Positions 3,588 to 59,111 of a DNA stretch of 64,000 bases are shown here, piece after piece. The first letter of the stretch is position 1; every line of letters starts with the position of its first letter. The stretch covers positions 1,170-65,169 of the forward strand of contig SOJW01000020.1 of the NCBI GenBank assembly GCA_004375895.1. The letters are read 5' to 3'. The notes beneath the pieces were generated by a model. That model worked only from the letters and a program-made list of their open reading frames with translations. It was not told where the DNA came from and searched no databases. Source of the DNA: Candidatus Stahliibacteriota bacterium (GTDB lineage: Bacteria > Hydrothermota > Tepidihabitantia > B3-TA06). A program made the position numbers and the translations under genes.

Positions 3588-3605
3588 TTGCCCCAAAATG
3601 TCCAA

Positions 3606-3649
3606 CTTTTGGGTAGCTTTTGACCACCTTTTGACCACCTTTTGACCAG
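3606..3649 (+). repeat. Four tandem 11-bp units CTTTTGACCAC/G (iteron-like)
   Basis: cttttgggtag cttttgaccac cttttgaccac cttttgaccag; exact 11-bp period; related pair at 12586..12607. Confidence 0.85.
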
Positions 3650-3706
3650 CTTAATTGTGACGAGTTCGATGTAAACCTGGCCTGGTTTGCCCGGCAAGGG
3701 CAGGGC

Positions 3707-6606: not shown

Positions 6607-6617
6607 ACTATACTAAA

Positions 6618-6632
6618 GGTGTCAAATGGGGG
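6618..6632 (+). repeat. GGTGTCAAATGGGGG motif copy (left boundary of AT-rich islet 2)
   Basis: Same 15-mer at 733..747, 2215..2229 (1 mismatch) and 13958..13972 (1 mismatch). Confidence 0.8.
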
Positions 6633-6656
6633 AAGAGATATAGAGGGAAACGGCTG

Positions 6657-9546: not shown

Positions 9547-9702
9547 ACTCTTTCTCTCCTTTCTACAAGAATTGATGCCCGCATTTCTGGACACAAAAGT
9601 CTTTATTCTCGAATTCACTCCTAATCCTGCCTTTAGAGAAGAGAGATTCAACACTCTCTAAAAATCTTCTGCGATTTTTTTGTCGAAGACAAAAAGGAGC
9701 AT

Positions 9703-9921
9703 TTACTTCCCCTTGAGGTTGGCCTCGAACCAGCGCAGGATGTGGTTCAGCCGTGCTATGCGACGGTCGGTGCGACCTGAGCGAGGAGGTTCGGGAATTT
9801 CGGCAGGATAACTCACCATCCCGGTGTGAACGCCGAGTTTCTTGCCTGCGACTTGACTCAGGGCACGTGTGGCCCGTCATATATCGCCAGGAACGAAGCG
9901 GAGAGTGATATTGCAATTCAT
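9703..9921 (-). pseudogene. Possible relic of an alpha/beta-hydrolase (S9 peptidase-like) C-terminus
   Basis: Minus frame LRFVPGDI*RATRALSQVAGKKLGVHTGMVSYPAE...RLNHILRWFEANLKGK* with an in-frame TGA. Confidence 0.3.
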
Positions 9922-10707: not shown

Positions 10708-10826
10708 GTGGAGGATACCCTCTCAGGGTGTTCCTTCTCAGGGTCCCAATATGTCATCCCTGCGGGATGACATGGGCAGGCTGAGAGCCTACCCTCCATA
10801 AGTCCGTTCTCCATATTAAAAGAAGG
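10708..10826 (+). repeat. REP-like repeat copy 1
   Basis: gtggaggatacc[ctctcagggtgt insertion]ccttctcagggtcccaatATGTCATCCCTGCGGGATGACATgggcagg... Confidence 0.9.
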
Positions 10827-10858: not shown

Positions 10859-11353
10859 TCATTCCTCACCCTCAACCCAAGCCCTCCATAGCCAGGGATA
10901 ATCATCAACCTTTTTCACCAGGCCTTTTCTGACTGGATTGGCACAGATGTATTCGACCTTGCTTTCGGCATGTTCATAGGAACGCAGGATGCGGTCAAAG
11001 TATTCCTTCTGCCACACCTTACCTTCCCTGCCTAACGCTCTATTGATACTGCGGGCTGAAGCTCCTTTTATCCCCTGCATAATCTCTGCTAGGCCGTAGG
11101 TGACGCCTTGATCATCCTTCAATGGAGTAATAATCATATGGACATGGTCAGGCATAACGACAACACCGTGAAGAAAAAACTTTTTCCCGTGGTCGTGCAG
11201 GCAGTGTTTAATAACCAGATGCCGAACTGATTCGGGAAGTATCCAGCGTTTGAAAGTTGAAAAGGTTACAAAAAGGGATTTCCCTTCTCTCTGCAGATGG
11301 GGCAGCTTCCGGCAGTAGCTTTCTTTAGCAGGTTTTGCAGACGGTCGTTTCAT
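10859..11353 (-). CDS. REP-associated tyrosine transposase (IS200/IS605 Y1 HUH family, RAYT-like)
   Basis: HUH motif MPDHVHMII; catalytic-Tyr helix VEYICANPVRKGL; 164 aa; no TnpB partner. Confidence 0.8.
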   Translation of the reverse strand: MKRPSAKPAKESYCRKLPHLQREGKSLFVTFSTFKRWILPESVRHLVIKHCLHDHGKKFFLHGVVVMPDHVHMIITPLKDDQGVTYGLAEIMQGIKGASARSINRALGREGKVWQKEYFDRILRSYEHAESKVEYICANPVRKGLVKKVDDYPWLWRAWVEGEE

Positions 11354-11370: not shown

Positions 11371-11475
11371 GTGGAGGATACCTTCTCAGGGTCCCAATAT
11401 GTCATCCCTGCGGGATGACATGGGCAGGCTGAGAGCCTACCCTCCATAAGTCCGTTCTCCATATTAAAAGAAGGA
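11371..11475 (+). repeat. REP-like repeat copy 2
   Basis: Same orientation and sequence as copy 1, without the 12-13 nt insertion. Confidence 0.9.
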
Positions 11476-11974: not shown

Positions 11975-12020
11975 TTCTCCTCCCCCTTGACGGGGGAGGG
12001 TTAGGGTGGGGGTGAATAAA
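11975..12020 (+). repeat. GC-rich CCCTTGACGGGGGAGGG-TAGGG module, copy 1
   Basis: cctcccccttgacgggggagggttagggtgggggtgaa; second copy at 12395..12445. Confidence 0.75.
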
Positions 12021-12124
12021 AACGCCCTGTCCGGTTTTACTTACCCGGTAAACCATACCTGAAAAGAGTTCATGTTAATTCAGTCTACTGGGATGAGGTG
12101 GGGTGTCAACCAATTCCTTCCCTA

Positions 12125-12255
12125 GTCATCGCGAGGCTGTCGCAGACAGCCGTGGCGATCTCATAGCACTAGCTTTGAACGGCCACTACCTGCTATGAGA
12201 TTGCTCCCTGCGTTCGCCCTCCGGTGCTTCGTCTCCTTCGGAGACTCGCAATGAC
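12125..12255. repeat. ~130-bp palindromic element
   Basis: Outer GTCATCGCGAG / CTCGCAATGAC and inner GCGATCTCATAGCA / TGCTATGAGATTGC inverted repeats; each arm has its own small hairpin. Confidence 0.75.
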
Positions 12256-12394
12256 AATAAAAAGAAATAAAAACGGGCCGACTTGAAAGTCGGCCCCTAC
12301 GAGGTTATTATTCAATGCTTTCGGGTTGGAACAGGCTTTTGAACAGACACGATGTATTGACCATGGACAGAGATAATCGAATACTACCGCCTCA

Positions 12395-12445
12395 TCCTTA
12401 ATATACCCCTCCCTTGACGGGAGGGGGTAGGGGGAGGGTGAATTA
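12395..12445 (+). repeat. GC-rich CCCTTGACGGGAGGGGGTAGGG module, copy 2
   Basis: cccctcccttgacgggagggggtagggggagggtgaa. Confidence 0.75.
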
Positions 12446-12585
12446 ACAACAGCGGGCCGACCTAACGCTTGTGCCCCCGTCGGGTACGAAGCGGACGCCA
12501 TAGGCGTCAACGTCGGCCCCTACATTTTTCGCTCACCCCACACAGCTGCTACGCATCGTCGCGGGGACCCCGTAAGGGTGTCCAG

Positions 12586-12630
12586 CTTTTGACCAGCTTT
12601 TGACCAGTATTTGGGGAGTTTTTGTCACCC
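12586..12630 (+). repeat. Two 11-bp CTTTTGACCAG units plus an inverted, degenerate boundary box
   Basis: cttttgaccag x2, then tatttggggagtttttgtcaccc, resembling the reverse complement of TTGCCAAAAATACCCCGAAA. Confidence 0.6.
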
Positions 12631-12643
12631 TTTTTCTGAGACT

Positions 12644-13798
12644 TCAAAACAGCTGAACCCCTGCCGAGAATCCAGCCCAGATGCGGGTCCAGGTATTGCC
12701 GGAGCGGCCCTCATAAAGAGCAAGATCAAAGATGGGTATATCCGAACCGTCCTCCTCGGTGGAGACCCAGACGTTAATGGTCGGGCCTGCGGTTACGGCA
12801 AGCTTGGGGCTAATCTGCCAACCGGCGGTAATGCGCAGCTTGTTGAGCATGTTGAGTCCTTCCTGACTCCAGAATATCAGCCCTTCTGAGACATTGTAAC
12901 CCACAGCGTCGATATCGAGGAAGAACGGATCGGCCGGTATGTGTCCGCCGATCCCCAGTCCCAGCCTGCTTCTGAGAGGTGAACCCAGCGGCTGCAGTCC
13001 GACGGCATAAACGTTGTAGACGTGCTTGGAGCCGAGCTTTATACCCACGTTGAGAAGTGAGCTTTCATCCGTCCAGGCGTTAACGTGGAACTGCCCGTTC
13101 TTGACGATGCTGACGATGCCGATAGGTACGCCGTCGTGATCGGTGGCTACGTTAACCACGCCCAGCTGCAGGCCACGGGCGTGCCCCGCGATGTTAACCA
13201 CACCCGCCTGCGTGTACGTCTCGCCAAGCGCAATGTTAACCACACCTATCTGGACGGTACTGTTCCTGCCTACCATATTCCCGGCACCGGCAATCTGCAC
13301 TCCGGTTACGTCACCCAAGGCGAAGTTCATCACTCCGGCAAGTTGCAGCCCTGTGACATGGGTAAGTGTAATGTTTGCCACTCCGGCGAGCTGTGCACCC
13401 TCAAAGTCGCCTCGAACCACATTAGTTACGCCTGCGATTTGGGCAACACTGAATTCTCCACCGACAACGTCAATTAAGCCTGCGATCTGTAAGCCGGCCA
13501 CGTCGCCGCCTGCGAAGTTGCCCACACCTGCGGCTTGAAAACCTGTGACGTGACCCTTATCTATGTTTAATACAGAGCCTATCTCGCAGCCCTCGATGTT
13601 ACCGATAAGACCTCCGATTATGTTAAGCGAGAAGTTAGAAGTAACGTGAGTGTAGGGTGGACCATTCGAACCAAAGCCGGGAACGAACGAAACGGATACA
13701 GGCCTGTGGACAGGCTCGGCTTGGGCTGAGATCACCGACGGCATGAAAAGCGCCATGATACTGACGACTAAGATACAAATCCTTTCTGAGTTGCGCAT
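12644..13798 (-). CDS. Secreted repeat protein (LA_2272-like AGxxNxAxGxVxGxQxAG repeats) with beta-barrel-like C-terminus
   Basis: GGAGGAG SD + ATG 13798; signal peptide ...MPSVISAQA; about 10 tandem repeats, e.g. GLQIAGLIDVVGGEFSVAQIAGVTNVVRGDFEGAQLAGVANI. Confidence 0.7.
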   Translation of the reverse strand: MRNSERICILVVSIMALFMPSVISAQAEPVHRPVSVSFVPGFGSNGPPYTHVTSNFSLNIIGGLIGNIEGCEIGSVLNIDKGHVTGFQAAGVGNFAGGDVAGLQIAGLIDVVGGEFSVAQIAGVTNVVRGDFEGAQLAGVANITLTHVTGLQLAGVMNFALGDVTGVQIAGAGNMVGRNSTVQIGVVNIALGETYTQAGVVNIAGHARGLQLGVVNVATDHDGVPIGIVSIVKNGQFHVNAWTDESSLLNVGIKLGSKHVYNVYAVGLQPLGSPLRSRLGLGIGGHIPADPFFLDIDAVGYNVSEGLIFWSQEGLNMLNKLRITAGWQISPKLAVTAGPTINVWVSTEEDGSDIPIFDLALYEGRSGNTWTRIWAGFSAGVQLF

Positions 13799-13811
13799 AA
13801 AACTCCTCCTT

Positions 13812-13843
13812 GTGATCTTTTGCGCGAAGCGCAAAAGGAGCAT
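13812..13843 (-). repeat. ATGCTCCTTTT-hairpin-AAAAGATC element copy in a 5' UTR
   Basis: Minus strand ATGCTCCTTTTGCGCttcGCGCAAAAGATCAC, between promoter 13938..13965 and ATG 13798. Confidence 0.7.
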
Positions 13844-13937
13844 TGAAAACATTTGCTCCTCCTTTTGAGGACTGAACTTAAACTCTCTTGAAAGGGGCAC
13901 TCAATCTACGAAAGTAGTGCCATCCTAACTAAATAGA

Positions 13938-13965
13938 ATTATAGCTGAGACCGCGGGGGTGTCAA
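13938..13965 (-). promoter_or_regulatory. Consensus sigma-70 promoter of the repeat-protein gene
   Basis: Minus strand TTGACA-16 nt-TATAAT; the -35 lies in a GTGTCAAATG motif copy. Confidence 0.65.
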
Positions 13966-14076
13966 ATGTGGGATGGATAAAAGAACGCTGGTCGAGCGGG
14001 TGCCTGTGCCATAGAGGGGGAAGCCCGCTGCCGATACGATGCTTCCGACGGACGCCAATCGAGTCGGCAGGCGTCC

Positions 14077-16710: not shown

Positions 16711-17558
16711 TATTTCTTCCCCTTCTCCGATTTTGGTGTGTTACGGGTGTTACGGGTGTTACGGGTACGGGCGGGGTCCCCCCGCGAAGGCTTCGCCTTC
16801 GCGGGGGGTTCAACCATCCGGTGGGGTACCTTTCCGTGGAAGATCGCCTCCATCTGGGTCCCGTATAACCGCTGGAAATGCTCCTCATCCCAGATCTCGG
16901 AGGGACAAGCGTGCAGATGCACACTCTTCGCCACGCAGGCCACATCGTCAACGAAACTCGGCACCACCACAAGATCGTGGCTTGCCACCAGTATGGTGAG
17001 GGAAAGTTCCTCCTTCAACTCGCGGATAAGGGAATAGAAGCGGTCCTTTGCCTCAACGTCCGCGCCTGAGGTGGGTTCGTCGAGCAGGATAAGCTTCGGC
17101 TCACCAACAAGCGCACGGGCGATGGCCACGCGCTGCTTCTGCCCGCCGGATAGTGCCCCTACCGGACGGATGGCCACATCCCTAAGCCCCACGCGAGCAA
17201 GCATAGTAAGTGCGATCTCGCGGTCGTGCCTGCCCGCTCGTCTTATGAGACCTAAAGCCGGGTACCGTCCCATGAGCACCACATCCAGGGCACTCACAGG
17301 GAAGCGCCAGTCAACCACGCTCTCCTGGGGAACGTAACCTATCCTGGCGCGCTTGAGATCATAGTAACGCACCCTTCCCTGGGTAGGCTTGATAAGGCCT
17401 GCTATCACCTTGAGAAGCGTTGTCTTCCCGCCCCCGTTCGGGCCTATGAGCGCCGTAGATGAGCCCGCCGTTATCTGGATGTTCACATCATGAAGAGCCG
17501 TGAGCTCTTGAAAGCGTACGCTGACGTCCTCAAGGCTAACCAGGATTTTGGAACTCAC
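16710..17558 (-). CDS. Metal ABC transporter ATP-binding protein (ZnuC/TroB-type) with repeat-encoded C-terminal extension
   Basis: Walker A GPNGGGKTT, signature LSGGQKQR, Walker B LILLDEP; tail EPPAKAKPSRGDPARTRNTRNTRNTPKSEKGKK is encoded by the hairpin + GTGTTACGG array. Confidence 0.85.
   Translation of the reverse strand: MSSKILVSLEDVSVRFQELTALHDVNIQITAGSSTALIGPNGGGKTTLLKVIAGLIKPTQGRVRYYDLKRARIGYVPQESVVDWRFPVSALDVVLMGRYPALGLIRRAGRHDREIALTMLARVGLRDVAIRPVGALSGGQKQRVAIARALVGEPKLILLDEPTSGADVEAKDRFYSLIRELKEELSLTILVASHDLVVVPSFVDDVACVAKSVHLHACPSEIWDEEHFQRLYGTQMEAIFHGKVPHRMVEPPAKAKPSRGDPARTRNTRNTRNTPKSEKGKK
16736..16808 (+). repeat. GTGTTACGG array + GC hairpin element, copy 1
   Basis: gtgttacgg x3 + gtacggg, then ccccccgcgaaggcttcgccttcgcgggggg; lies inside the znuC-like 3' end. 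Confidence 0.85.
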
Positions 17559-18445
17559 CTGCCCCCCATAGCCTCTGAAAGTACCGCCAGGTTGCGATCC
17601 ATTAGCTTGATGTAGGATTCATTCTGCTTGCCCAATGGGTCCAAGAAGAGCACCTCAACGCCTGCCTCTTTTGCGATAACCTGAGCCGCCTTGGGCGAGA
17701 GCTGGGGCTCGGCAAAAACCGCGCGTGCACCGGTCTTCTTGATAGACTCGATCACCTCCTGTAGGTGTCTCGGAGTAGGTTCCTTGCCTGGCGAGGAGAC
17801 GATTACGGCAACGCGTTCAAGACTGTAACGTAAGGCGAAGTAGATCCAGGCGGGATGCAAGGAGACGTACTTTTTTGAGCCGAACTCGGCTACCGCGGCC
17901 TCGATGCGAATATGAAGCGAGTCAAGCTCCGTGAGGTACCGATCCCTCTCTTTTTCATAGACCGCCTGGGCCCGAGGATCGATGCGCCCTAATTCCTCGG
18001 CTATGGCGGAGCAGATAATCTTGGCGTAGGCAGGATCAAGCCAGATGTGGGGATTGGCGCTGTGGTGGGGGTGAGCTTCACCTTGATTCTCGGTGATTAA
18101 TTCTATCCCTTCAAGCTCGGCAGCGGTGATAACCGGAGCACCCTCGGGCAAGAGTCCGTGGATCCAGCGATCGGCGTCAAGACCGATGCGGACCACAAGA
18201 TCGGCCTGGGCCGCTGCTCTGGCCTGGGAGGGTGTGGGCTCAAAGGTGTGAGGTGATGCCCCCGGAGAAAGCAGCGTGGTAACCTGGACCCGGTCGCCGC
18301 CCACCTGCCTGGCGAAAGCCGCAAGGACGGGTATTGTAACAACCACCTTGACCTTGTCGGTTGAGGGTTTAGATGGCTTGTTCTTGCAATGGATCAAACC
18401 GAAGATACTCAACAGGACGCTCGCAAGAGCCACTGCACGCCTCAT
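17555..18445 (-). CDS. Metal ABC transporter substrate-binding lipoprotein (ZnuA/TroA-type)
   Basis: Signal/lipobox ...FGLIHC; SPGASPHTFEPTP and HIWLDP metal-binding motifs. Confidence 0.85.
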   Translation of the reverse strand: MRRAVALASVLLSIFGLIHCKNKPSKPSTDKVKVVVTIPVLAAFARQVGGDRVQVTTLLSPGASPHTFEPTPSQARAAAQADLVVRIGLDADRWIHGLLPEGAPVITAAELEGIELITENQGEAHPHHSANPHIWLDPAYAKIICSAIAEELGRIDPRAQAVYEKERDRYLTELDSLHIRIEAAVAEFGSKKYVSLHPAWIYFALRYSLERVAVIVSSPGKEPTPRHLQEVIESIKKTGARAVFAEPQLSPKAAQVIAKEAGVEVLFLDPLGKQNESYIKLMDRNLAVLSEAMGGR

Positions 18446-18472
18446 GAATCCTCCTTGTTCTCTTGGCTAATA

Positions 18473-18500
18473 GAATTAGGAAGAGAAAGCGAAATGTCAA
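18473..18500 (-). promoter_or_regulatory. Putative promoter of the metal-uptake operon with overlapping CTAATtctATTAG palindrome
   Basis: Minus strand TTGACA-16 nt-TAATTC; AAGGAGG SD before ATG 18445. Confidence 0.4.
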
Positions 18501-18522
18501 GCCAGATTTTGCTCCTTTTTGA

Positions 18523-18560
18523 ATGCTCCTTTCGTTGCTACGCAACGAAAGTTCGCAGAA
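18523..18560 (+). repeat. ATGCTCCTTT-hairpin-AAAGTTCGCAGAA element copy (plus orientation)
   Basis: atgctcctttcgttgctacgcaacgaaagttcgcagaa. Confidence 0.75.
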
Positions 18561-18600
18561 AAGAGAGAAGGCCGACCTTGGGGTCAAAAGATCGCAAGCA

Positions 18601-18631
18601 AAGAAAAGAGACCGACTTAAAATCGGCCTCC
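18601..18631 (-). terminator. Rho-independent terminator after the EF-G paralogue
   Basis: Minus strand GAGGCCGAttttaagTCGGTCTC followed by TTTTCTTT. Confidence 0.6.
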
Positions 18632-18640
18632 ACAGATTCA

Positions 18641-18677
18641 TTCTGCGATCTTTTCCCCTTCTAGGGGAAAAGGAGCA
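18641..18677 (-). repeat. AATTAATGCTCCTTTT-hairpin-AAAAGATCGCAGAA element copy abutting a stop codon
   Basis: Minus strand (AAT TAA)TGCTCCTTTTCCCCtagaaGGGGAAAAGATCGCAGAA; the TAA is the EF-G paralogue stop. Confidence 0.8.
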
Positions 18678-20756
18678 TTAATTCTCTTTAGCCTTTTTCG
18701 CTTCCTCGATGACCTTGGCCGAGAGCTCACGAGGCACCGGCTCGTAGTGATCGAATGTCGCGGTGAAGAACCCGCGTCCCTGGGTTACCGATCTGAGAGT
18801 CGTCGCGTACTTGTACATCTCCGCCTCGGGCACTAAAGCCTTGATCACCTGGTTGCGACCCACCGAGTCCATGCCCTGTATCTTTCCCCGCCGGGAGTTC
18901 AAATCGCCTATAACGTCGCCCATGAACTCCTCGGGAACGGTTACTTCGACGGTCAGGATGGGTTCAAGCAGTATGGGTTTTGCCTTCTCACAAGCAGCGC
19001 GGAACGCTATCTGCGCGGCCAGCTTGAAGGCGATATCCGATGAGTCCACTTGGTGAAAGCTTCCGTCGTAGACCGTGGCCTTGAGGTCAACCATCGGGTA
19101 GCCGGCCAAAAAGCCCTGTGCAACGGTCTCGCGCACACCCTTCTCCACGGACGGGATGAACTTGGAGGGGATGGCGCCGCCGAAGATCTCCGAGGCGAAC
19201 TCCGCCCCTGACCCCAAGGACAGAGGCTCCAGGCGAAGGAACACGTCGCCGAACTGACCGCGACCGCCGGTCTGCTTCTTGTGACGTCCCCGGGCGGTCG
19301 CCTCTAGGGTGACGGTCTCGCGATAGGGGATGCGCGGCTTGCGGGTATCCACCGAAACCCCGAACTTCTTCTTGAGCTTGGACAGGATGACGTCGAGATG
19401 CAGCTCGCCCATGCCTGAAATAAGCTGCTGCTTGAGTTCGGGGTCAAACCGGTAGACGAAGGTGGGGTCCTCGTCGTGCAACCTGGCGAGCGCATTGGAG
19501 ACCTTTTCCTCGTCGCCCTTGGACTGGGGCACGATAGCCACCGAGATGGGCGGGTTGGGAAACTCCATCTTGCCCATGGAGTGAGCCGCCTTGGAGGAGA
19601 GGGTGTCTCCAGTGCCGGTGGACTTCAATTTAACCAGACCGCCTATCATGCCGCAGGAAAGTTTACCGATCTCGGAGCGCTCGCGGCCCTGGATGGAAAG
19701 GATCTGTCCGATACGTTCCGAGGAGCCCTGATCGGTGTTCTTAAGGGTGGAGCCGGATGCAATCTCGCCAGAGAAGACACGAACGTAGAGCAGATCACCC
19801 AGATGAGGGTCGGAGACGGTCTTGAAAACGTAGGCCAGCGCGTCGCCCGCGGGATGGGGAGCGATTTCCTTCTCTTCACCACCTTCCTGCACCTTTAGTG
19901 GAAGTATCTCAAGGGGCGAGGGGAATAAGGAGGCCGCGAACTCGATGAAGGGCTTCACACCGACGAGAGAGAGCGCGTCTCCAGCGAACAGAGGATAGGC
20001 TGCCCCCTCGGCGATACCCTTCCTGAGCACCGGGGTAAGCTGCTCCACCGTTGGGATGTTACCTTCGAGATAGGACTCCAAGAGGTCCTCATCCAGCTCG
20101 ACAATAGCCTCTATGAGCTTCTCGCGGTAGGTTCCCACGTCGCCTTTGACGTCGGCAGGGATCGGAGCCTCCTCGGTCTTGCCGTCCTTGGTCACATAGG
20201 CCTTTTCGTTGAGGAGATCTACCACCCCGGAAAGGCTTGAGCCTGAACCTATGGGTATAGTTATCGGCGCAACCGAGGTCCCGTATGCATCAACCATTTG
20301 GCTATAGTCGGAGGCAAAGTCGGTATCCTCCTTGCCCAGCTTGTTTATAAAGAGCGCCTTGCTCTTTTTTTCTTCGGCAAGACGTTCCCAGCTCATCTCG
20401 GTGCCCACCCCGATGCCTTCGGCAGCATCTATCACCACTACACCAAGATCAACCGCGCGGGCACCGGAGATCATCTCGCCCACAAAATCCGCATAGCCCG
20501 GGGTGTCAACCATGTTAAAGATGGTGCCTGCATGCTCGCACGAAGCAAGGGCAAGGTTGAGACTGATCTTTCTCTCTATCTCGGCCTCGTCGAAGTCGAA
20601 GATCGAGGTGCCTGCGTCCACCTTGCCCTGTCTGGAGTTGGCACCGGTGAGGTAAAGGACAGCGTCGGCCAGACTGGTCTTTCCCGAGCCGCCGTGTCCG
20701 AAGAATCCAAAGGTCCTTATCTTCTTAGGATCGTTCACCAAACCTCCTTCAGACAA
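18678..20756 (-). CDS. Elongation factor G paralogue (EF-G2-type)
   Basis: Five-domain EF-G architecture; G1 GHGGSGKTS instead of AHIDAGKTT; DTPGYADF G3. Confidence 0.85.
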   Translation of the reverse strand: MSEGGLVNDPKKIRTFGFFGHGGSGKTSLADAVLYLTGANSRQGKVDAGTSIFDFDEAEIERKISLNLALASCEHAGTIFNMVDTPGYADFVGEMISGARAVDLGVVVIDAAEGIGVGTEMSWERLAEEKKSKALFINKLGKEDTDFASDYSQMVDAYGTSVAPITIPIGSGSSLSGVVDLLNEKAYVTKDGKTEEAPIPADVKGDVGTYREKLIEAIVELDEDLLESYLEGNIPTVEQLTPVLRKGIAEGAAYPLFAGDALSLVGVKPFIEFAASLFPSPLEILPLKVQEGGEEKEIAPHPAGDALAYVFKTVSDPHLGDLLYVRVFSGEIASGSTLKNTDQGSSERIGQILSIQGRERSEIGKLSCGMIGGLVKLKSTGTGDTLSSKAAHSMGKMEFPNPPISVAIVPQSKGDEEKVSNALARLHDEDPTFVYRFDPELKQQLISGMGELHLDVILSKLKKKFGVSVDTRKPRIPYRETVTLEATARGRHKKQTGGRGQFGDVFLRLEPLSLGSGAEFASEIFGGAIPSKFIPSVEKGVRETVAQGFLAGYPMVDLKATVYDGSFHQVDSSDIAFKLAAQIAFRAACEKAKPILLEPILTVEVTVPEEFMGDVIGDLNSRRGKIQGMDSVGRNQVIKALVPEAEMYKYATTLRSVTQGRGFFTATFDHYEPVPRELSAKVIEEAKKAKEN

Positions 20757-24046: not shown

Positions 24047-25085
24047 GGAAACGTCTTCCTTCAACTGCGGGGGGGCGGGCCGAGGCATAAAAAAGCTGAC
24101 CCTTGGAACGAATAAGATCGAAGAGCAGGTGTGTGTTGTCGTTATCAAGCTCGGCAGCCACGTCGTCCATGAGATAGATTGGCCTGCGACCTGAAGCAAG
24201 AGCTGTCTCGGCCTCAGCCAGGGCAAGCGCGAGGGCGGCAAGCCGATGCTCGCCGTAGGAACCGAAGACACGCAATGGGCGAGAGTTGAGAAGAATACGA
24301 AAGTCGTCGCGGTGCGGACCGCGGCGGGTGTAGCCAATCTGACGCTCCGCCTCCCTGCTTCGAGCCAGAACCTCAAGATAGTTTTCTTTCCCGCCCACGT
24401 TTGGAAGATACTCCAACCGAATCTCATCAGCGGGCAGGAAACGCCGGCTCATCTGCTCAAAGTGACCATTGAAGTTTTGCCAGTACTCCAAGCGCCGCTC
24501 GCGGATCTCGCCTGCCAGCTCGGCCAGGCGCTTATCCCATACCGAAAGCTCATCGTCGCCTCCACGCCTGCGCAGCAGCGCGTTGCGGTGGGCAAGTACC
24601 CTGCGGAACTCTGAAAGCATCCATCGGTAAGCGTGAGAAAGCTTGGCTACAGCTTCGTCGATGAACGTCCTGCGGTATGCAGGGGGACCAGCCACAATGC
24701 GGCGGTCGTCCAGGAGAAAAACCGAAACAGGCAGCCACCCGGCATAAAGGGAGCGTTTGGCTATCTCGCGCCGGTCAAAGAAGTAGTGCTTGCGTTCGGC
24801 AGGCGAGAAGTAAACCCTCGCAGACCACTCCTTATCCTTGGAACTTCTTGCCTTCCCAGCTATACGGAAATGAGGGGCTTCAAAACCCAGGAGCTGATCG
24901 TCCTGGATGGTACGGAAGCTGCGGCCCGAGGCAAGCACGGTGATCGCCTCCAAAAGATTCGTCTTACCCGAGCCGTTAGGCCCGAAGATAATGTTGGCCC
25001 GCGGATCGAACTCCAGACCCTGCTCGGCAAGGTTGCGAAAACCAGAGACGGAGATCTCAGCAAGCCACACAGTTTCACCCCACAA
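24015..25085 (-). CDS. recF: DNA replication/repair protein RecF
   Basis: FRNL...IIFGPNGSGKTNLLEAI Walker A; C-terminal LMDDVAAELD; exact start uncertain (TTG 25085 or GTG 25070). Confidence 0.9.
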   Translation of the reverse strand: MWGETVWLAEISVSGFRNLAEQGLEFDPRANIIFGPNGSGKTNLLEAITVLASGRSFRTIQDDQLLGFEAPHFRIAGKARSSKDKEWSARVYFSPAERKHYFFDRREIAKRSLYAGWLPVSVFLLDDRRIVAGPPAYRRTFIDEAVAKLSHAYRWMLSEFRRVLAHRNALLRRRGGDDELSVWDKRLAELAGEIRERRLEYWQNFNGHFEQMSRRFLPADEIRLEYLPNVGGKENYLEVLARSREAERQIGYTRRGPHRDDFRILLNSRPLRVFGSYGEHRLAALALALAEAETALASGRRPIYLMDDVAAELDNDNTHLLFDLIRSKGQLFYASARPPAVEGRRFHVRQGKIRPV

Positions 25086-25106
25086 GAGCGCGAAGCGCTC
25101 TTGTGG
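25080..25106 (-). terminator. Hairpin after the SPFH gene
   Basis: CCACAAGAGCGCgaaGCGCTCTTGTGG perfect 12-bp stem. Confidence 0.5.
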
Positions 25107-25128
25107 GGACCCAGGATAAACCTCTCAT

Positions 25129-26205: not shown

Positions 26206-26260
26206 ATGCTCCTTTTCGCTGAAGGTGACGTGTGCTCCGGAGTGCTAAAAGCTCGCAGAA
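26206..26260 (+). repeat. AATTAATGCTCCTTTT...AAAAGCTCGCAGAA element copy
   Basis: atgctccttttcgctgaagg...gctccggagtgctaaaagctcgcagaaATGAATCTG; tail matches 18631..18648. Confidence 0.7.
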
Positions 26261-26306
26261 ATGAATCTGGATGGGCGAGCTTTAGATCACTCCGAACTTA
26301 GATACC

Positions 26307-36541: not shown

Positions 36542-36652
36542 TGTAATCCTTTCAGTTCATTCTTCCGCAACCAGCGAATAAGTCTGCTTTAGTTTTTCCG
36601 CCACGAATTCGCACAGAGGTTTACGTGTTGGTTTTCAGCTCGGCCCGCACGA

Positions 36653-36686
36653 TCTCCGATCTTTTCCCCGTAGGGGAAAAGGAGGA
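36653..36686 (-). repeat. AATTAATCCTCCTTTT-hairpin-AAAAGATCGGAG element copy abutting a stop codon
   Basis: Minus strand (AAT TAA)TCCTCCTTTTCCCCtacGGGGAAAAGATCGGAG; the TAA is the stop of gene 36687..38183. Confidence 0.8.
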
Positions 36687-38183
36687 TTAATTTGCGCTCC
36701 TTATTGTGAAGGTCAAGGCATTACCTTCGTGCTCCATACCTATCAGCAAGGCCTTCATCTCAAACGCGTCTAAAAACGGAAAGAGCTTTTCCTCAACGTT
36801 CGCCGGGGTAAAGCCTGCGGTGCGGTCGGCGGCGTAGATCAGGTACTCCTTTAAGGCTTCCCTGAACAGCGGCCAGTTGAGGCAGGCAACGGGTTCGGTT
36901 ATTCCTGCCGCTTCAAGATAGCCTGCGAACTCCTCCGAGCCGTCAAGGGTTAGACCGGCAGAGTACGCGTCAAGCAACCAGGGGACAAGCGCTGAGTCCG
37001 AGGTAACGGTAAGGTAGGAGTTATTAAAAAGATAGGTTATCGGCGGCAGATCCTCGCCCAGATCGAGCATGGTGTAGGCAACCTCGCCGTGAGTCAGGGT
37101 GGTGTCCCAGGCTGCGGGGAAGAACCAGGGTGCGAGTGCAGTCCAGCTCTCGAACGAACGCTCCGAGCCTGCCTCCACAGAAACCAGCCAGCGAGCCGGG
37201 GCATACCATCTATCTACATCCCAGCCCTGCATGATAAACATGGCTTCGTCCTTAAGGTCGACAGCTATCCGGGCAAACTCCTTTTCTATATCGAGATTAC
37301 CCAGAACCTCTAGCGCTCCCTCCTCTGCAGAAAGCTTGCCTGCTTCCTTCCAGACCCTGTAGGGATTGACACCGGCAAGGCTTATGAAGAGCGCGGCGTC
37401 TGCAGGTATCTTTGAGTAATCTTCAGGAGGCTTTGCATTGGCGATGAGGCCGCCCAGGACGCCTGAGGGTTTATCCATCTGGATTATTGCTTCGATTCCG
37501 TTCTCGCCTTCCTGGATAATCCATCTTGCTTCATCGAAGATCAAGTATTTACCGTGCTTACGCAAGAGCCCGTAGGCCAGCGGCTCAATGCCTCTACCGA
37601 TTGGGAAGGCTTTCTCTTCCTTCAGGTCTTCGGAGGAGGCGATCGCAAGACCCTTAAGCAGAAGCTTTTCCGAGGAGGCATACCAGAAGTAGTCTCCGGC
37701 AAAGAATGCCGCGGTGCCGCCCGTGAAAACTGTGTAGGGGATGCCTTGTGAGGACTTCTCATCGCCTTTAGCGATAATACTGCGCCACATCGCCTTTACC
37801 TTCCAGCTAGGCTGGGTGATGAGAAGGAAGCGCTTCTCGCCGTAGCTTGCGTAGATGAAGCGTGCACCAAGAACGTCCCAGAATCTGCCCTTGGTCTGTT
37901 CCTGAACCTTACTCACTTTCTCAAGGTTTGAGAAGTCTTTGTCTATCTCGTGCTTGCGGGCCAGGTGTCCTATTTTCGATGACTTGTAGAGTTTGCCGGC
38001 AGCTGTAAGATCGGCAGTCATATAGCTTTCCGCGCCCTTGGGAAGGAGCTCTTCCAGCACACCTACCTCGCGTTCTAGACCCGGGGTATCGGTCATCACC
38101 GCATAGGCGATCCCAGCTCCTATCACAAGCACTCCCAGACCTATCCCCACACCGATTAGAATTCTTTTAAGCTTTTTATTCAT
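36687..38183 (-). CDS. Membrane-anchored hypothetical protein (last gene of the A2M operon)
   Basis: N-terminal TM KRILIGVGIGLGVLVIGAGIAYAV; 4-nt overlap with the upstream gene. Confidence 0.6.
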   Translation of the reverse strand: MNKKLKRILIGVGIGLGVLVIGAGIAYAVMTDTPGLEREVGVLEELLPKGAESYMTADLTAAGKLYKSSKIGHLARKHEIDKDFSNLEKVSKVQEQTKGRFWDVLGARFIYASYGEKRFLLITQPSWKVKAMWRSIIAKGDEKSSQGIPYTVFTGGTAAFFAGDYFWYASSEKLLLKGLAIASSEDLKEEKAFPIGRGIEPLAYGLLRKHGKYLIFDEARWIIQEGENGIEAIIQMDKPSGVLGGLIANAKPPEDYSKIPADAALFISLAGVNPYRVWKEAGKLSAEEGALEVLGNLDIEKEFARIAVDLKDEAMFIMQGWDVDRWYAPARWLVSVEAGSERSFESWTALAPWFFPAAWDTTLTHGEVAYTMLDLGEDLPPITYLFNNSYLTVTSDSALVPWLLDAYSAGLTLDGSEEFAGYLEAAGITEPVACLNWPLFREALKEYLIYAADRTAGFTPANVEEKLFPFLDAFEMKALLIGMEHEGNALTFTIRSAN

Positions 38184-38818
38184 AAGGCCTCCTCTTTGAT
38201 TAGTCGGACTAAACTGTCTAGTCCCATTCCATCTATTTTTTCCTGAGTCAACCGAGCTGCTGCCAGATAGCCGAGCTTTAAGTCCAACGTATCCTTGCTT
38301 TTAAGCAATGTCTCAATCCTTTCTTTCTCTTTAGGCAAATCTTTCAAACTTACATCCTCTGCTAGCCTCCTCGCCTGCCCGGAACATATCACCGCCAGCC
38401 CCTCGTTGAGCCATAAAGGGACCTCATATGGCTCAAGCACAAGGTGCACGTACTCGTGAACCACTACCTCCTCAAGCACCCCGCGACGTTCAAGAACAGC
38501 CAGGGGCTGAACGATGAGCTCCCCGTTTCTTACCGCCGCACCATGCCAGATAGAACATCCGGTCCAGGCAGCAAAATCCCCACTCGAAGGCGCCACCCGT
38601 AACACACCACCCCGTAACACCCGTAACACACCATTCTCCCACCCTACCCCCATCGAATGATCTTCAAAGTAATCATCAACTACCCTTTCTGAGGTTCTCA
38701 GAACCTCCACCCACCTAGAAATCTCCTGTCGGTTAACTTCTTCCCCCGATGTAATGATTACCCATCTATCCATGGGCACCACCGCGCTCCAGAGAATCGC
38801 CAAGAAAAGCCTTACCAT
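38180..38818 (-). CDS. Peptidase-MA-like metalloprotein (HExxH...NEGLA)
   Basis: VVVHEYVHLVLEP...WLNEGLAV; carries an in-frame GTGTTACGG-element insert (GWENGVLRVLRGGVLRVAPSSG). Confidence 0.6.
   Translation of the reverse strand: MVRLFLAILWSAVVPMDRWVIITSGEEVNRQEISRWVEVLRTSERVVDDYFEDHSMGVGWENGVLRVLRGGVLRVAPSSGDFAAWTGCSIWHGAAVRNGELIVQPLAVLERRGVLEEVVVHEYVHLVLEPYEVPLWLNEGLAVICSGQARRLAEDVSLKDLPKEKERIETLLKSKDTLDLKLGYLAAARLTQEKIDGMGLDSLVRLIKEEAL
38575..38640 (-). repeat. GTGTTACGG element copy 2, inside a coding sequence
   Basis: Minus strand gagaatggtgtgttacgggtgttacggggtggtgtgttacgggtggcgccttcgagtgggg. Confidence 0.8.
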
Positions 38819-56291: not shown

Positions 56292-56434
56292 TATAAATCC
56301 CGGTCTGAGGGCAGACACCCGACCCTCTGAGGCTCATCCGCTCGGTATTATTCACAAAGACCTACGTGTAGAGAAAGGCCGGGGCTCAGGCCCCGACCTG
56401 GTTTGAGCTGAACCCCTTCTAGGGGAAATTTATG

Positions 56435-56476
56435 CCCGTGTTACGGGTTACGGGTTACGGTGTTACGGGTTACGGG
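56435..56476 (+). repeat. GTTACGG/GTGTTACGG array, copy 3
   Basis: cccgtgttacgggttacgggttacggtgttacgggttacggg; includes the stop codon of the GDH paralogue. Confidence 0.85.
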
Positions 56477-57738
56477 AAGATACCTCGTCTCTTGTAGATT
56501 CTCTCCAGTCTGGTAAGTGCCTCGATGCGTGCCGCGGTGCACCAGTCGGTCTTGAACTCCGCTGCGCGGTCGCGCACCCGGTGGTAAGCGTCCTTCATCT
56601 TGTTCTGCAGTTTGCGGTCTACCTCTTCAAGTTCCCACAGCTCGCTTCGTTTGTTCTGCAGCCACTCGAAGTAGCTCACGATCACGCTGCCGGAGTTGCA
56701 CAGGATGTCTGGGAGCACCTCAATTCCCCTCTCCTTCAAGATCTTTGAGCCATCTCGATCGCAGGGGCAGTCGGCTCCCTCGACCACCAACTTGACGTTG
56801 AGCTTGGGTGCGGTCTGGGCGGTGATCTGATACTCCAACGCGGCTGGGATGAATATATCGGCTTTTGTAGCAAGGAAGGCCTCGTGATCTATCGGTTTTG
56901 CATTGGGGTAGCCTGCTATGCGTCCGTTCTCCTTGTCGTATGTCAAAAGGTCGGAGGGATCGATTCCACGAGGGTTATAGATCGGGCCGGAGGTATCCTC
57001 GACCGCAACGAGTTTTGCTCCTTTTTGATTGAGCAAGATGGAGGTCCAAACACCTACACTTCCGAATCCTTGAACCGTGTAGGCAGCACCCTCAAGATCG
57101 AAGCGGTGACCAGCTGCCCATTCCTCGATGGCAAAGACAAGCCCCTGGCCCGCTGCTTTGTCATGCCCGACGCTGCCGCCCAGGTGGATGGGTTTGCCGG
57201 TGACCACGTGTGTTTTGGCCTGCCTTTTTTCCGGAGGCATGGTAGAGAGGTAGGTATCCAGTATCCAGGCCATAGTCTGGGGGTTTGTGTTCACGTCCGA
57301 GGTGAGTATGTCGTACTCCGCTCCGATGTTCGAGCCAAGGGAGTAGGTAAAGCGGCGGGTGATTCGTTCCACATCAGAGAAGTTGTAGTCAGAGGGGTTG
57401 AACTGGACCCCGCCTGCAGCCCCGCCGAATGGGATACCGGCGATAGCCGCCTTACACGTCATCACAGTAGCAAGCGCGCGCATCTCTCCCAGATCAACCC
57501 AGGGATGAAAGCGAAGTCCGCCCGAGTAGGGACCCATCACGTTGTTGTGCTGCACACGATAGCCAGTGAACATCTCCACCCGACCGTTTGACATCTTAAC
57601 CGGGAAGTTGACGGTAATCTCGTTGGTAGTCTTGGCCAGGATTTTGAGAACCTCACGGTCTAGCTTCATCAAATCCGCGGCATTATGGAGCCCCTCAAGA
57701 ACGTCGCCGTAGAAACCGGTTTCCTTCTTCATCATCAC
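56470..57738 (-). CDS. Glutamate-dehydrogenase-family paralogue lacking the catalytic lysine
   Basis: Full-length Glu/Leu/Phe/Val-DH fold, but IPFGGAAGGVQFNP (K->A) and GPYSGGLR (K->S); GFGSVG Rossmann motif intact. Confidence 0.85.
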   Translation of the reverse strand: MMMKKETGFYGDVLEGLHNAADLMKLDREVLKILAKTTNEITVNFPVKMSNGRVEMFTGYRVQHNNVMGPYSGGLRFHPWVDLGEMRALATVMTCKAAIAGIPFGGAAGGVQFNPSDYNFSDVERITRRFTYSLGSNIGAEYDILTSDVNTNPQTMAWILDTYLSTMPPEKRQAKTHVVTGKPIHLGGSVGHDKAAGQGLVFAIEEWAAGHRFDLEGAAYTVQGFGSVGVWTSILLNQKGAKLVAVEDTSGPIYNPRGIDPSDLLTYDKENGRIAGYPNAKPIDHEAFLATKADIFIPAALEYQITAQTAPKLNVKLVVEGADCPCDRDGSKILKERGIEVLPDILCNSGSVIVSYFEWLQNKRSELWELEEVDRKLQNKMKDAYHRVRDRAAEFKTDWCTAARIEALTRLERIYKRRGIFP

Positions 57739-57742
57739 TCCT

Positions 57743-57845
57743 TACGGTTTGCTGTTACCGTGTGTTACGTGTGTTACGGGTGTTATTTCCTTGTGATTCA
57801 AGCTGATTATGAGAATCCCCCGAAGGGGGGCGGGTGTTACGGGGC
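57743..57845 (+). repeat. GTGTTACGG composite element, copy 4 (between the two GDH genes)
   Basis: gtgtgttacgggtgttatttcctt...tgagaatcccccgaaggggggcgggtgttacgggg. Confidence 0.85.
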
Positions 57846-57848
57846 TGC

Positions 57849-59111
57849 TCATGGGAAGATCCCACGTTCCTTGTATACCGTTTCAAGACGTGAGAGAGCG
57901 ACGATGTAGGCCGCGGTTCGCCAGTCTATGTTGTGCTCTCGAGCCGTATCGCGAACGCGTTCGTAGCCTGCAACGATCTTGCGGTGCAGTTTTCCATCCA
58001 CCTCTTCAAGATCCCAGAACTCGCTGCGCTTGTTCTGCAGCCACTCGAAGTAGCTTACGATCACGCCGCCGGAGTTGCAAAGGACGTCTGGAAGAAGATC
58101 GGTTCCCTTTTCATGAAGAATCTTATCACCGTCCGGATCGGTGGGACCGTTTGCGCCTTCGGCAACCAGCTTCACGTTAAGCATGGGAGCGGTCTTTAGT
58201 GTGATCTGGTTCTCAAGAGCCGCCGGGATGAAGATGTCGGCCTTGGTCGCAAGGAAGGTTTCGTGATCAATAGGTTTGGCCTTTGCGTAGCCGCCAATCA
58301 ATCCCTTATTCTTTTGCGTATACTCATAAAGGTCGTCGGGATCGATCCCCTTTGGATTGGCAATAGCCCCGCTTACGTCCTCGACAGCAACGAGCTTTGA
58401 ACCGTGTGGTTTGAGGAGACGGGACGCCCAGGAACCCACGTTCCCGAACCCCTGAACGAAGTATGCCGCACCCTCAAGATCAAAGTTGGTATCTTTGGCC
58501 CACTGCTCGATGGTAAAGACCACACCCTGGCCAGTAGCCTTGTTGCGGCCTATGCTCCCACCCGACTCGACAGGCTTGCCGGTAACTACATGGACTGCCG
58601 CCTGACGCTCGTGGGCAGGCATGGTGGAGAGGTAGGTATCCAGGATCCAGGCCATTATCTGAGGGTTGGTGTTTACGTCCGGTGCAGGGATGTCGAACTC
58701 AGGCCCTATGTTCGAGCCCAGGGCAAAGGTGAATCGGCGGGTGATGTGCTCAAGCTCGCTTGCCGAGTACTTGAATGGATCGATCTGGATGCCGCCTTTT
58801 GCTCCACCGAACGGGAGGTTCACTATGGCCGATTTCCAGGTCATCCAGGTAGCCAGCGCCCGAACCTCATCAATGTCCACGGCAGGGTGATAGCGCAGCC
58901 CCCCTTTGTAAGGGCCAAGCGCGTTGTTGTGCTGCACCCGGTAACCGGTGAACATCTCGATGTGGCCGTTGTCCATCTTAACCGGAAAGTTGACGATTAC
59001 CTCATTGTTGGTTCTAGCAAGTATCTTGCGGATCTCAGGATCCAGATGCATCAAATCAGCAGCCTTGTTAAACTGCTTGGTTACGTTATCGTAAACGCTC
59101 GCCTTTTTCAT
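57849..59111 (-). CDS. gdhA: Glutamate dehydrogenase
   Basis: GPYKGGLRYH, active-site signature LPFGGAKGGIQIDP, PAPDVNT, GFGNVG. Confidence 0.92.
   Translation of the reverse strand: MKKASVYDNVTKQFNKAADLMHLDPEIRKILARTNNEVIVNFPVKMDNGHIEMFTGYRVQHNNALGPYKGGLRYHPAVDIDEVRALATWMTWKSAIVNLPFGGAKGGIQIDPFKYSASELEHITRRFTFALGSNIGPEFDIPAPDVNTNPQIMAWILDTYLSTMPAHERQAAVHVVTGKPVESGGSIGRNKATGQGVVFTIEQWAKDTNFDLEGAAYFVQGFGNVGSWASRLLKPHGSKLVAVEDVSGAIANPKGIDPDDLYEYTQKNKGLIGGYAKAKPIDHETFLATKADIFIPAALENQITLKTAPMLNVKLVAEGANGPTDPDGDKILHEKGTDLLPDVLCNSGGVIVSYFEWLQNKRSEFWDLEEVDGKLHRKIVAGYERVRDTAREHNIDWRTAAYIVALSRLETVYKERGIFP

Follow-up and report, generated by a model that had tools for sequence, protein, structure and literature searches.

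An extragenic palindromic repeat family of candidate division WOR-3 and its resemblance to REP-like elements

Repetitive extragenic palindromic (REP) sequences consist of a palindrome set between a 5' flank and a 3' flank (PMC3337134), and REPINs, which are inverted doublets lying outside genes, commonly undergo compensatory changes (PMC3116915). Here we analyse a repeat family, named E, that occurs in a 64-kb stretch of DNA (contig SOJW01000020.1 of the Candidatus Stahliibacteriota assembly GCA_004375895.1; hereafter the window) and in other genome or metagenome loci, which carry L-numbers (L001 and so on), and we describe its structure, covariation, distribution and positional rules, as well as the secondary origin of the stop codon that E can supply. 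REPs and REPINs of Pseudomonas and Enterobacteria are mobilized by REP-associated tyrosine transposases (RAYTs). In E. coli, bacterial interspersed mosaic elements (BIMEs) are mosaics of REP (palindromic) units and other motifs, including those of the IHF-binding RIB/RIP type, and they have gyrase, IHF and Pol I as protein partners. The subterminal hairpins of IS200/IS605 elements, and of their miniature derivatives, are read on one DNA strand by Y1 HUH enzymes.

E resembles REPs, such as those of E. coli, and REPINs in that it is a short imperfect palindrome with conserved flanks (seen in an ungapped alignment of 28 copies), is extragenic and present in many copies (six in the 64 kb; 182 of 190 outside called open reading frames, ORFs), forms, with a minority of its copies, inverted doublets at set spacing with a hairpin in the spacer, is kept at orthologous sites, undergoes compensatory change and shares its genome with a RAYT gene. 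It differs in that this RAYT is not flanked by the same repeats, that most copies are singlets, that the spacer of a doublet is an unrelated, locus-specific terminator and not a copied unit, and that a conserved foot and a variable tip are combined within a single 35-nt unit; moreover, a fixed spacing to -35 boxes is, to our knowledge, not a described property of REPs. With BIMEs E has in common its mosaic intergenic clusters (in company with a second hairpin family, hairpin-1, and with CCCTCCCC palindromes and GTCATTGCGAG repeats), the inverted arrangement of palindromic units around a central motif, and a location at the 3' ends of transcription units in an orientation independent of transcription; unlike BIMEs, to which it has no sequence similarity, its central motif is an intrinsic terminator and not an IHF site. 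The imperfect hairpin, the asymmetric unpaired element near the foot and the conserved single-stranded flanks on both sides recall IS200/IS605, but E lacks distinct left and right ends enclosing cargo, and no conserved target tetranucleotide is demonstrable.

We favour, with moderate confidence, the reading that E is a lineage-specific extragenic palindrome of the REP/REPIN/BIME kind that acts and spreads as DNA; it would be recognized by a protein and may be spread by an enzyme of the HUH/Y1 type or a similar one. We suggest that the hairpin would form on a single strand or as a cruciform, and that its conserved foot (the AT-rich 5' flank, the 3-bp outer helix, the UC/NUC loop, the CUUUU/AAAAG helix and the 3' GAA) would be the likely recognition surface for a trans-acting protein. 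The tip would need only to pair, so that it could drift by compensated changes. The copies that persist lie between genes, the right arm tends to lie toward an intrinsic terminator hairpin and the left arm outward, packed against a stop codon or a -35 box, and the AT-rich flank gives a stop codon only where a deletion has fused an ORF to E. That E would act as DNA rather than RNA is argued from the lack of orientation bias, the many untranscribed copies upstream of promoters and the rarity of wobble pairs.

Structure, covariation and distribution of E

A covariance model, R1, was built from 28 equal-length copies of E, all from other genomes, and run over the window with its filters off. It recovered exactly six copies, at expectation values from 3e-15 to 2e-3, and these are the six that an earlier, sequence-only reading of the window had listed; in the rest of the 64 kb R1 found no match below an expectation value of about 1, save weak reverse-strand echoes of the six hairpins. 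A further stretch that had been taken for a related sequence, 56413-56428, does no more than reverse-complement the stem-loop of copy 4; it lacks the arms and does not belong to the family. The conserved arms do exceed chance: the left arm occurs 16 times in the window at up to two mismatches, against 6.0 ± 2.5 expected, and the right arm 19 times at up to three mismatches, against 6.2 ± 2.1 expected. The shared extensions GAATTAA and TGAATCTG, previously thought to be general, occur only in copies 4 and 5 with their orthologues; across the family the 5' flank is an AT-rich (T)TAA(A).

Each unit is an imperfect palindrome of 35-37 nt, with a core TGCTCC...GCAGAA; written in one orientation, an AT-rich flank is followed, in order, by TGCTCC, T4-5, a variable stem, a loop of 3-5 nt, the complementary stem, A4-5, G, N and TCGCAGAA. 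At the foot of the fold a 3-bp outer helix, UGC/GCA, leads into a conserved asymmetric internal loop, UC against NUC; above this lies an inner helix of 9-10 bp, with a conserved lower part, CUUUU/AAAAG, and 4-5 variable base pairs on top, of which the two apical ones are mostly C-G. The T-run and the A-run are paired parts of this helix. The loop is usually 3 nt long (most often TGC), with occasional insertions of 20-50 nt, as in copy 5.

Pairing was scored in three alignments, namely the ungapped alignment (A2, 28 distinct rows) and two alignments fitted to the model, one of genome loci (A3, 69 rows) and one of metagenome loci (A6, 115 rows, all left out of the training of R1). Partners were paired in 97.6% of cells in A2, compared with 82.7% in shuffles and 44-56% when the partner was slid; the corresponding values were 97.9%, 82.7% and 43-64% in A3, and 97.7%, 83.1% and 44-61% in A6. 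Two-sided changes numbered 48 against 11.7, 114 against 27.0 and 178 against 51.1, respectively. Covariation, which the sequence-only reading had named as the analysis that might refute the element, is therefore strongly supported in two independent sets. The description of stems that differ between copies and always pair holds as far as pairing in about 98% of cells with compensatory change is concerned, but the variation is confined to the top 4-5 bp. The outer helix covaries too, a G-C pair being replaced by C-G in 7 and in 11 rows, with UCC/GGA at many loci and UGU/ACA once, and pair 13-31 switches between U-A and C-G. Among 2137 cells, non-Watson-Crick combinations are few (21 G-T, about 1% of cells, and 12 A-C), and wobble tolerance favours neither strand of E, the difference between G-T and A-C not being decisive.

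The core could also be read as a short coding sequence, a mini-peptide MLLF...KIAE beginning ATG CTC CTT. The base preceding TGCTCC is A in 50 rows, G in 12, T in 6 and C in 1, giving ATG, GTG or TTG in 68 of 69, and by inspection the 35-nt copies keep the frame that ends in ...K I A E. The probability of this reading is nevertheless close to nil, and we discarded it on account of the frame difference between the 35- and 37-nt classes, of stops and of missing starts: the 37-nt copies shift the frame, the loop of copy 4 holds a TAG, copy 6 and all UCC variants have no start codon, no Shine-Dalgarno sequence lies upstream, and it is the base pairing that is conserved, not the codons.

A scan of genomes, one per species, with a pattern of 21 specified bases returned 46 loci, 38 of them in metagenome-assembled genomes of WOR-3 or 'Ca. 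Stahlbacteria', the remaining 8 being the number that chance predicts for 21 specified bases; the same kind of scan of metagenomes gave 81 further loci. R1 matched 76 times in the genome loci and 146 times in the metagenome loci, which corresponds to about 190 distinct copies. Exact-pattern matches number 3-5 per contig of 280-305 kb, and since only about half of the window copies fit the exact pattern, tens of copies per genome are a fair estimate. R1 has no match in viral contigs, nor in the 81 kb that surround the syntenic EF-G gene of four relatives (EF-G identity 73-81%). These results support the conclusion that E is restricted to one WOR-3 clade and that its presence differs among relatives. 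The genes of the window are ordinary chromosomal ones (recF, dciA, gyrB, an M42 peptidase gene, the gene of an EF-G paralogue, znuABC and recA-recX), and the nearest named homologues of the EF-G paralogue belong to candidate division WOR-3. The search of Rfam that the sequence-only reading had recommended places E in no curated family: with Rfam 15 the sole match over the window above its gathering score is a tRNA, and a permissive scan of 18350-18800 gave only chance-level matches, at expectation values above 2. E thus adds a structured repeat family of about 190 copies, absent from Rfam, to a candidate phylum with almost no experimental genetics.

The fold also invites comparison with integron attC-type sites, which are recombined by a tyrosine recombinase as folded single strands. 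E has a similar design, with a conserved outer helix, an asymmetric unpaired spacer, a conserved inner helix and a variable tip that tolerates inserts of up to about 50 nt; some copies lie directly 3' of stop codons, and new material is found at the right arm, with the arm duplicated. We hold it very improbable, however, that E is such a site, considering that the consensus has no GTTRRRY or RYYYAAC core, that the copies lie on both strands and form no same-orientation cassette arrays, that their neighbours are housekeeping genes in conserved synteny, and that no integrase-like gene was noticed beside the copies examined.

Position relative to genes, promoters and terminators

Codon-scored ORF calls around the 190 copies place 49 in sense and 37 in antisense orientation in co-directional spacers, 38 in convergent and 23 in divergent spacers; co-directional spacers make up 58% of the intergenic length of these loci, convergent ones 18% and divergent ones 24%. 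E has no orientation bias with respect to transcription, and it favours convergent spacers over divergent ones only mildly. In 28 cases the left arm begins within 0-5 nt of a sense stop codon that precedes it, whereas the right arm never comes closer than 12 nt to a convergent stop codon. Among 73 copies, about 20 have a strong hairpin that begins 4-16 nt past the right arm, compared with about 8 that have one past the left arm.

These counts bear on the possibility that E works as RNA, in cis and within 3' untranslated regions, either as a hairpin bound by a protein or nuclease that affects the stability or processing of mRNA or through anti-Shine-Dalgarno-like pairing of CUCCUUUU with ribosome-binding sites. 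Of the 28 copies close behind a sense stop codon, many precede a terminator and so would be transcribed; further, the covariation resembles that of an RNA, there are slightly more G-U than A-C cells, and the left arm is complementary to AAAAGGAG. The near-equal numbers of sense and antisense copies speak against it, as do about 25 copies that lie upstream of an adjacent promoter, point away from it and stand past the prior terminator, so that they should be largely untranscribed; wobble pairs are no commoner than other mismatches, and no Rfam family matches. Overall we regard an RNA function as rather unlikely.

Promoters were called complete when a -35 box with at most one mismatch was followed by a 16-18-nt spacer and TAnnnT (sigma-70-like). 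Beside 22 copies, from about 14 independent loci, a complete outward promoter begins 7-10 nt past the left arm; none begins at 11-22 nt and three begin at 23-24 nt. Two of these three (L070 and L073) carry an extra half left arm, which is again 8-9 nt from the -35 box, and by eye the same half-arm/-35 layout is found at copy 3 of the window. On the right-arm side, which serves as the control, promoter motifs are only scattered. Copies beside an outward promoter are not transcribed from that promoter. In several of the E-adjacent promoters (L028:2462, L021:816, L018:5456, L101:3211 and others) a start codon follows 5-6 nt after the -10 box; being 41-43 nt from E and directly after the -10, these start codons imply leaderless mRNAs in this lineage.

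Neighbouring copies form 19 convergent pairs (with the right arms inside), 3 divergent and 9 tandem pairs, doublets holding only about 20% of all copies. In 14 of the 19 convergent doublets the spacer is 36-50 nt long, and most of these spacers contain a hairpin. Since the spacer hairpins differ between loci and are unrelated, the terminator looks native, with E added on both sides of it. The layout that recurs is gene, stop codon, E, terminator, inverted E, -35 box and next gene; the doublet that the sequence-only reading had noticed in the window at 18509-18677 is one instance, and its arrangement of inverted copies around a terminator is borne out by the other convergent doublets. Folded as single-stranded DNA, the window doublet has an energy of -40.4 kcal/mol (z = -5.5), and the arms of one copy pair with those of the other.

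The positional rules of E are unusually sharp for a bacterial repeat, which makes host function testable. One reading, unlikely in our judgement though not remote, is that E, as duplex or extruded DNA, is bound by an abundant protein of the host, which would mark where transcription units end or begin, and that it serves as an insulator, roadblock or upstream activator; E would then stand before or after a terminator and roughly between -45 and -80 of the promoter that follows, its repeat-like spread being secondary. The fixed distance of promoters from the left arm argues for it, as do the duplicated half left arm 8-9 nt from the -35 box, counted in three loci besides the window, the recurrence of the doublet layout around unrelated terminators, and the retention of the arms at orthologous sites while the flanks diverge. 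Conversely, a recognizable promoter lies beside only about 14% of copies, many copies occupy other contexts (after tRNAs, in repeat mosaics and in divergent spacers), related genomes do without E at the same loci, and there is no candidate protein; moreover, central compensatory change would be unexpected for a plain duplex operator. We give little credence to a further proposal, in which a dedicated WOR-3 boundary factor would bind the foot of the extruded hairpin and couple insulation or termination to activation of the next unit. The foot would be bound on either side of intrinsic terminators and some 45 nt upstream of where transcription starts from the promoter that follows, often a leaderless one; as a concept this would be the bacterial counterpart of the eukaryotic Reb1/TTF-I terminator-promoter sites. 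Our preferred reading remains that E is a REP-like palindrome acting and spreading as DNA.

The spacer between the EF-G paralogue and znuA, and the other window copies

In the window the doublet separates the gene of the EF-G paralogue from the promoter of znuA. Copy 4, at 18641-18677(-), reads TGCTCCTTTT-CCCC-TAGAA-GGGG-AAAAGATCGCAGAA (57.4 bits; orthologues, in which the stem differs or is identical, in L001, L004 and L112). Copy 3, at 18524-18560(+), reads TGCTCCTTTC-GTTGC-TAC-GCAAC-GAAAGTTCGCAGAA (39.7 bits; orthologues in L001 and L004), and lies in the opposite orientation, antisense to both flanking genes and upstream of the znuA promoter. Between these inverted copies, outside E, lies the intrinsic terminator of the EF-G paralogue at 18607-18631(-), which consists of GGAGGCCGAttttaagTCGGTCTCT then TTTCTTTGCT, with 11 pairs and a T tail, and is kept in L004 and L112. 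A partial third copy at 18572-18599(+) has the stem-loop GACC-TTGG-GGTC and the right arm AAAAGATCGCAAGC without a left arm; it sits in an insertion of about 39 nt that duplicates the right arm and is present in L112 and not in L001 or L004. The extra half left arm at 18508-18519(+), TTTGCTCCTTTT, stands 9 nt away from the znuA promoter's -35-like TTGACA, which reads TGTCAA at 18495-18500 on the + strand.

A terminator scan of 18300-18800 flagged two hairpins, both outside the full copies: the strong, GC-rich one at 18607-18631(-), which confirms the Rho-independent terminator proposed earlier between the two copies, and a weaker one at 18572-18587(-), which is the stem-loop of the partial third copy. 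E itself had also been taken for a terminator. It is similar in being a GC-containing intergenic hairpin that follows genes and adjoins T and A runs, but the order is reversed: on either strand E reads T4-5, stem, A4-5, with no U-tract after the stem, so that the runs merely lengthen the helix, and the true terminators lie beside it; E itself is no terminator.

As previously described, a TAA belonging to E ends three ORFs of the window, those of the EF-G paralogue (18678-18680, in the flank of copy 4), of a 498-aa protein (36687-36689) and of a 38-aa protein (9703-9705). In L001 and L004 (81-82% EF-G identity) copies 3 and 4 both occupy the corresponding stretch between the EF-G gene and the promoter of znuA, and EF-G stops at its own TAA about 49 nt before E, with a hairpin-1 (CACCCC...GGGGACCCC) in between; L112, which is 98% identical to the window here, still holds the 49 nt (GAATAA and hairpin-1). 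The paralogue ends in KEN* in the window and in KEE* in L112. The window, as this comparison of relatives shows, has undergone a very recent 49-nt deletion that joined the EF-G ORF to the AT-rich flank of E. Because the relatives keep the native stop and the 49 nt lost from the window, the stop codon supplied by E is secondary. At L018:7263 the same kind of hairpin-1 deletion set E against a stop, as is evident from L026, L032, L071 and L080. Elsewhere at the EF-G site, E is absent from L051-L054 and degenerate in L002, which has only a decayed copy, and hairpin-1 is kept in L002 and L051; the flanks are too diverged to place the boundaries. The comparison of orthologous gene ends, which the sequence-only reading had recommended, thus reveals variation in the presence of E, but traces its use as the EF-G stop to a deletion.

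The model in which E is a small mobile terminator of the Rho-independent kind, which settles at gene 3' ends or takes their place and carries a stop codon with it, is very unlikely and contradicted by the sequence, although three window copies do provide a stop codon and copies cluster by gene 3' ends and terminators. On both strands a T-run precedes and an A-run follows the hairpin, the scan marks only neighbouring hairpins, the relatives keep their native stop 49 nt upstream, and half of the informative copies are antisense. The statement that E targets or replaces gene 3' ends was accordingly too strong, given the native EF-G stop in L001, L004 and L112, the absence of orientation preference and the roughly 25 copies upstream of promoters.

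The other four copies lie apart from this spacer. Copy 1, at 9667-9701(-), has the stem TGTC/GACA and the loop TTC (58.4 bits), and the stop codon of the 38-aa ORF (9703-9819) is placed 1 base upstream of its core. Copy 6, at 36652-36686(-), has the stem CCCC/GGGG and the compensated outer-helix variant UCC/GGA (58.6 bits); its orthologue is L001:3886-3920. Copy 5, at 26207-26260(+), has a core of 54 nt where 35 is usual (19.9-34.1 bits), with about 24-30 additional bases at the tip of the stem, and occupies a divergent spacer immediately 5' of an ATG at 26261. Copy 2, at 13808-13842(-), has the stem GCGC/GCGC and a degenerate right arm, GATCACAAGG (41.7 bits), and sits where the ORF 12644-13900 has its head, between two perfect pairs of AAGGAGGAG (Shine-Dalgarno) and ATG. 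Around this copy, in the region 13760-13900(-), some 100 nt are near-identical in L001:16540-16680, whereas the adjacent sequence has diverged. This arrangement could be a leader or regulatory layout, or an insertion that duplicated the ribosome-binding site. The ORF call at L001:16584 starts at the upstream ATG, so that E is read as codons; with the KEN*/KEE* case, this indicates that E can shift both the called ends and the called starts of genes, which matters for annotation.

Evolution of the copies, mobilization and neighbouring repeats

Orthologous copies usually have identical or near-identical cores in diverged flanks. Over longer distances the stem is swapped with full compensation; at the EF-G site it is CCCC/GGGG in the window, CGCT/AGCG in L001 and CGC/GCG in L004. 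Between L018 and L021, whose flanks are 93% identical, one copy has changed two stem pairs and the loop, and the other shows a compensated change of C-G to U-A together with an inverted loop. These changes may reflect occasional replacement of, or conversion between, copies. The loops of L018:5376-5410 and L021:6214-6248 are GGA and TCC between identical stems; such an inversion is the footprint that would be expected of a flip or template switch in a DNA palindrome. Hypervariability of the stem as a rule was considered and rejected, as L018 and L021 show a fully swapped stem but most other orthologous pairs share identical cores. Within one genome, loci that are not homologous can also carry the same core (L026, L033 and L039, all of JAYELY01). 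E takes part in mosaics with other families of repeats, and degenerate copies and duplicated half-arms are found as well.

The window carries a RAYT gene, 10859-11353(-), whose product scores 105 bits on NCBIfam NF047646 (cut-off 80), matches Pfam Y1_Tnp and has the motifs HVH and YICANP. Its flanks are perfect 94-nt direct repeats, 10733-10826 and 11381-11474, which hold a hairpin, GTCATCCCGCAGGGATGAC/CCCTCTCAGGG, and three homologues (L055-L057) are flanked by palindromes of the GGACGCCCTGAGAGGGCGTCC/GGACAGGCTCTCAGCCTGTCC type and not by E. Because the RAYT gene is flanked by repeats other than E, E cannot be counted as a demonstrated RAYT-REPIN member. The gene appears to interrupt a PEMT-like ORF, which is 120 aa long in the window and 191 aa in L056. 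We also looked for a gene recurrently enclosed by two copies of E, and set this aside, the candidates being only an MBL-fold hydrolase and unrelated housekeeping or small ORFs. A REP-like repeat that lacks an identifiable RAYT partner, in a genome whose RAYT is tied to another palindrome, provides a case for studying how repeats spread and persist.

Several points weigh against the reading of E as a REP-like palindrome that acts and spreads as DNA. About 80% of its copies are singlets, while classical REPIN populations consist mostly of doublets. That -35 boxes lie at so sharply set a distance, 7-10 nt, is suggestive of a role for the host and not just of tolerated selfish DNA, and the survival of orthologous copies intact while their flanks diverge likewise points toward one. 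The choice of DNA over RNA is based on orientation and position. E had to be abandoned as the REP of the window RAYT, given that this RAYT and its three homologues carry a different flanking palindrome, and no other HUH...Y/Y1 ORF that could be its cognate enzyme was found in about 1 Mb of E-bearing loci, covering several kb around the other roughly 190 copies, by tblastn and a HUH...Y regular expression that recovers all four RAYTs. A BLAST search of flanks for empty and filled orthologous sites yielded no clean case with defined boundaries, and the flank profiles, AT-rich on the 5' side and with no matching direct repeat on the 3' side, show no target-site duplication.

The sequence-only reading had likened E to a MITE, a miniature transposable element with inverted repeats. 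A dispersed, clade-limited, non-autonomous element of MITE or REP type does fit, but no target-site duplication is visible; in addition, each arm is only in part the inverse of the other (TGC-TC-CTTTT against AAAAG-ATC-GCA), and the two do not amount to terminal inverted repeats. L119 and L116, which at first resembled a filled and an empty site, with an extra E beside a shared one, turned out to be paralogous mosaics.

Several other repeats accompany E. Hairpin-1 consists of (T/C)ACCCCAC, a variable stem of 5-8 bp with a loop that is often TTCG, GAAG or TACG, and GTGGGGACCCCGAAT; it occurs in the window at 25072-25113(+), 12530-12575(+) and about 16770-16810, at L001:12062-12104 and at many other loci, often lies directly 5' of E, and is present after EF-G even in relatives without E. 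Its clean deletion in the window (49 nt relative to L112) and in L018 suggests that hairpin-1 is itself excisable. Beside hairpin-1 are arrays of 3-6 units with an 11-bp period, CTTTTGACCAG/CTTTTGTCCAC (window 3588-3655 and 12568-12646; L006:3670-3760; L043:1143-1260), whose phased T-tracts probably form intrinsically curved DNA. Other intergenic repeats are the CCCTCCCCC...GGGGGAGGG palindromes and GTCATTGCGAG...GAAGCAATCTC, found in the window at 11979-12023, 12406-12450 and 12200-12260; in L007:4100-5500 these repeats and four copies of E make up a non-coding mosaic of 1.4 kb with a BIME-like organization.

A 22-nt motif, G(G/A)GGTGTCAAATGGGGGAT, lies just past gene ends at 728-749, 2209-2230, 6613-6634 and 13953-13974, and contains TGTCAA, the reverse complement of a -35 box. 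The octamer GTTACGGG(T) forms short intergenic tandem arrays at 16734-16772, 38611-38633, 56429-56450, 57766-57796 and 61059-61089, one pair of which gives a perfect 23-nt inverted match across 22 kb. Finally, 56470-57738(-) and 57849-59111(-) encode adjacent paralogues of about 420 aa with about 70% DNA identity (repeat families D1 and D2).

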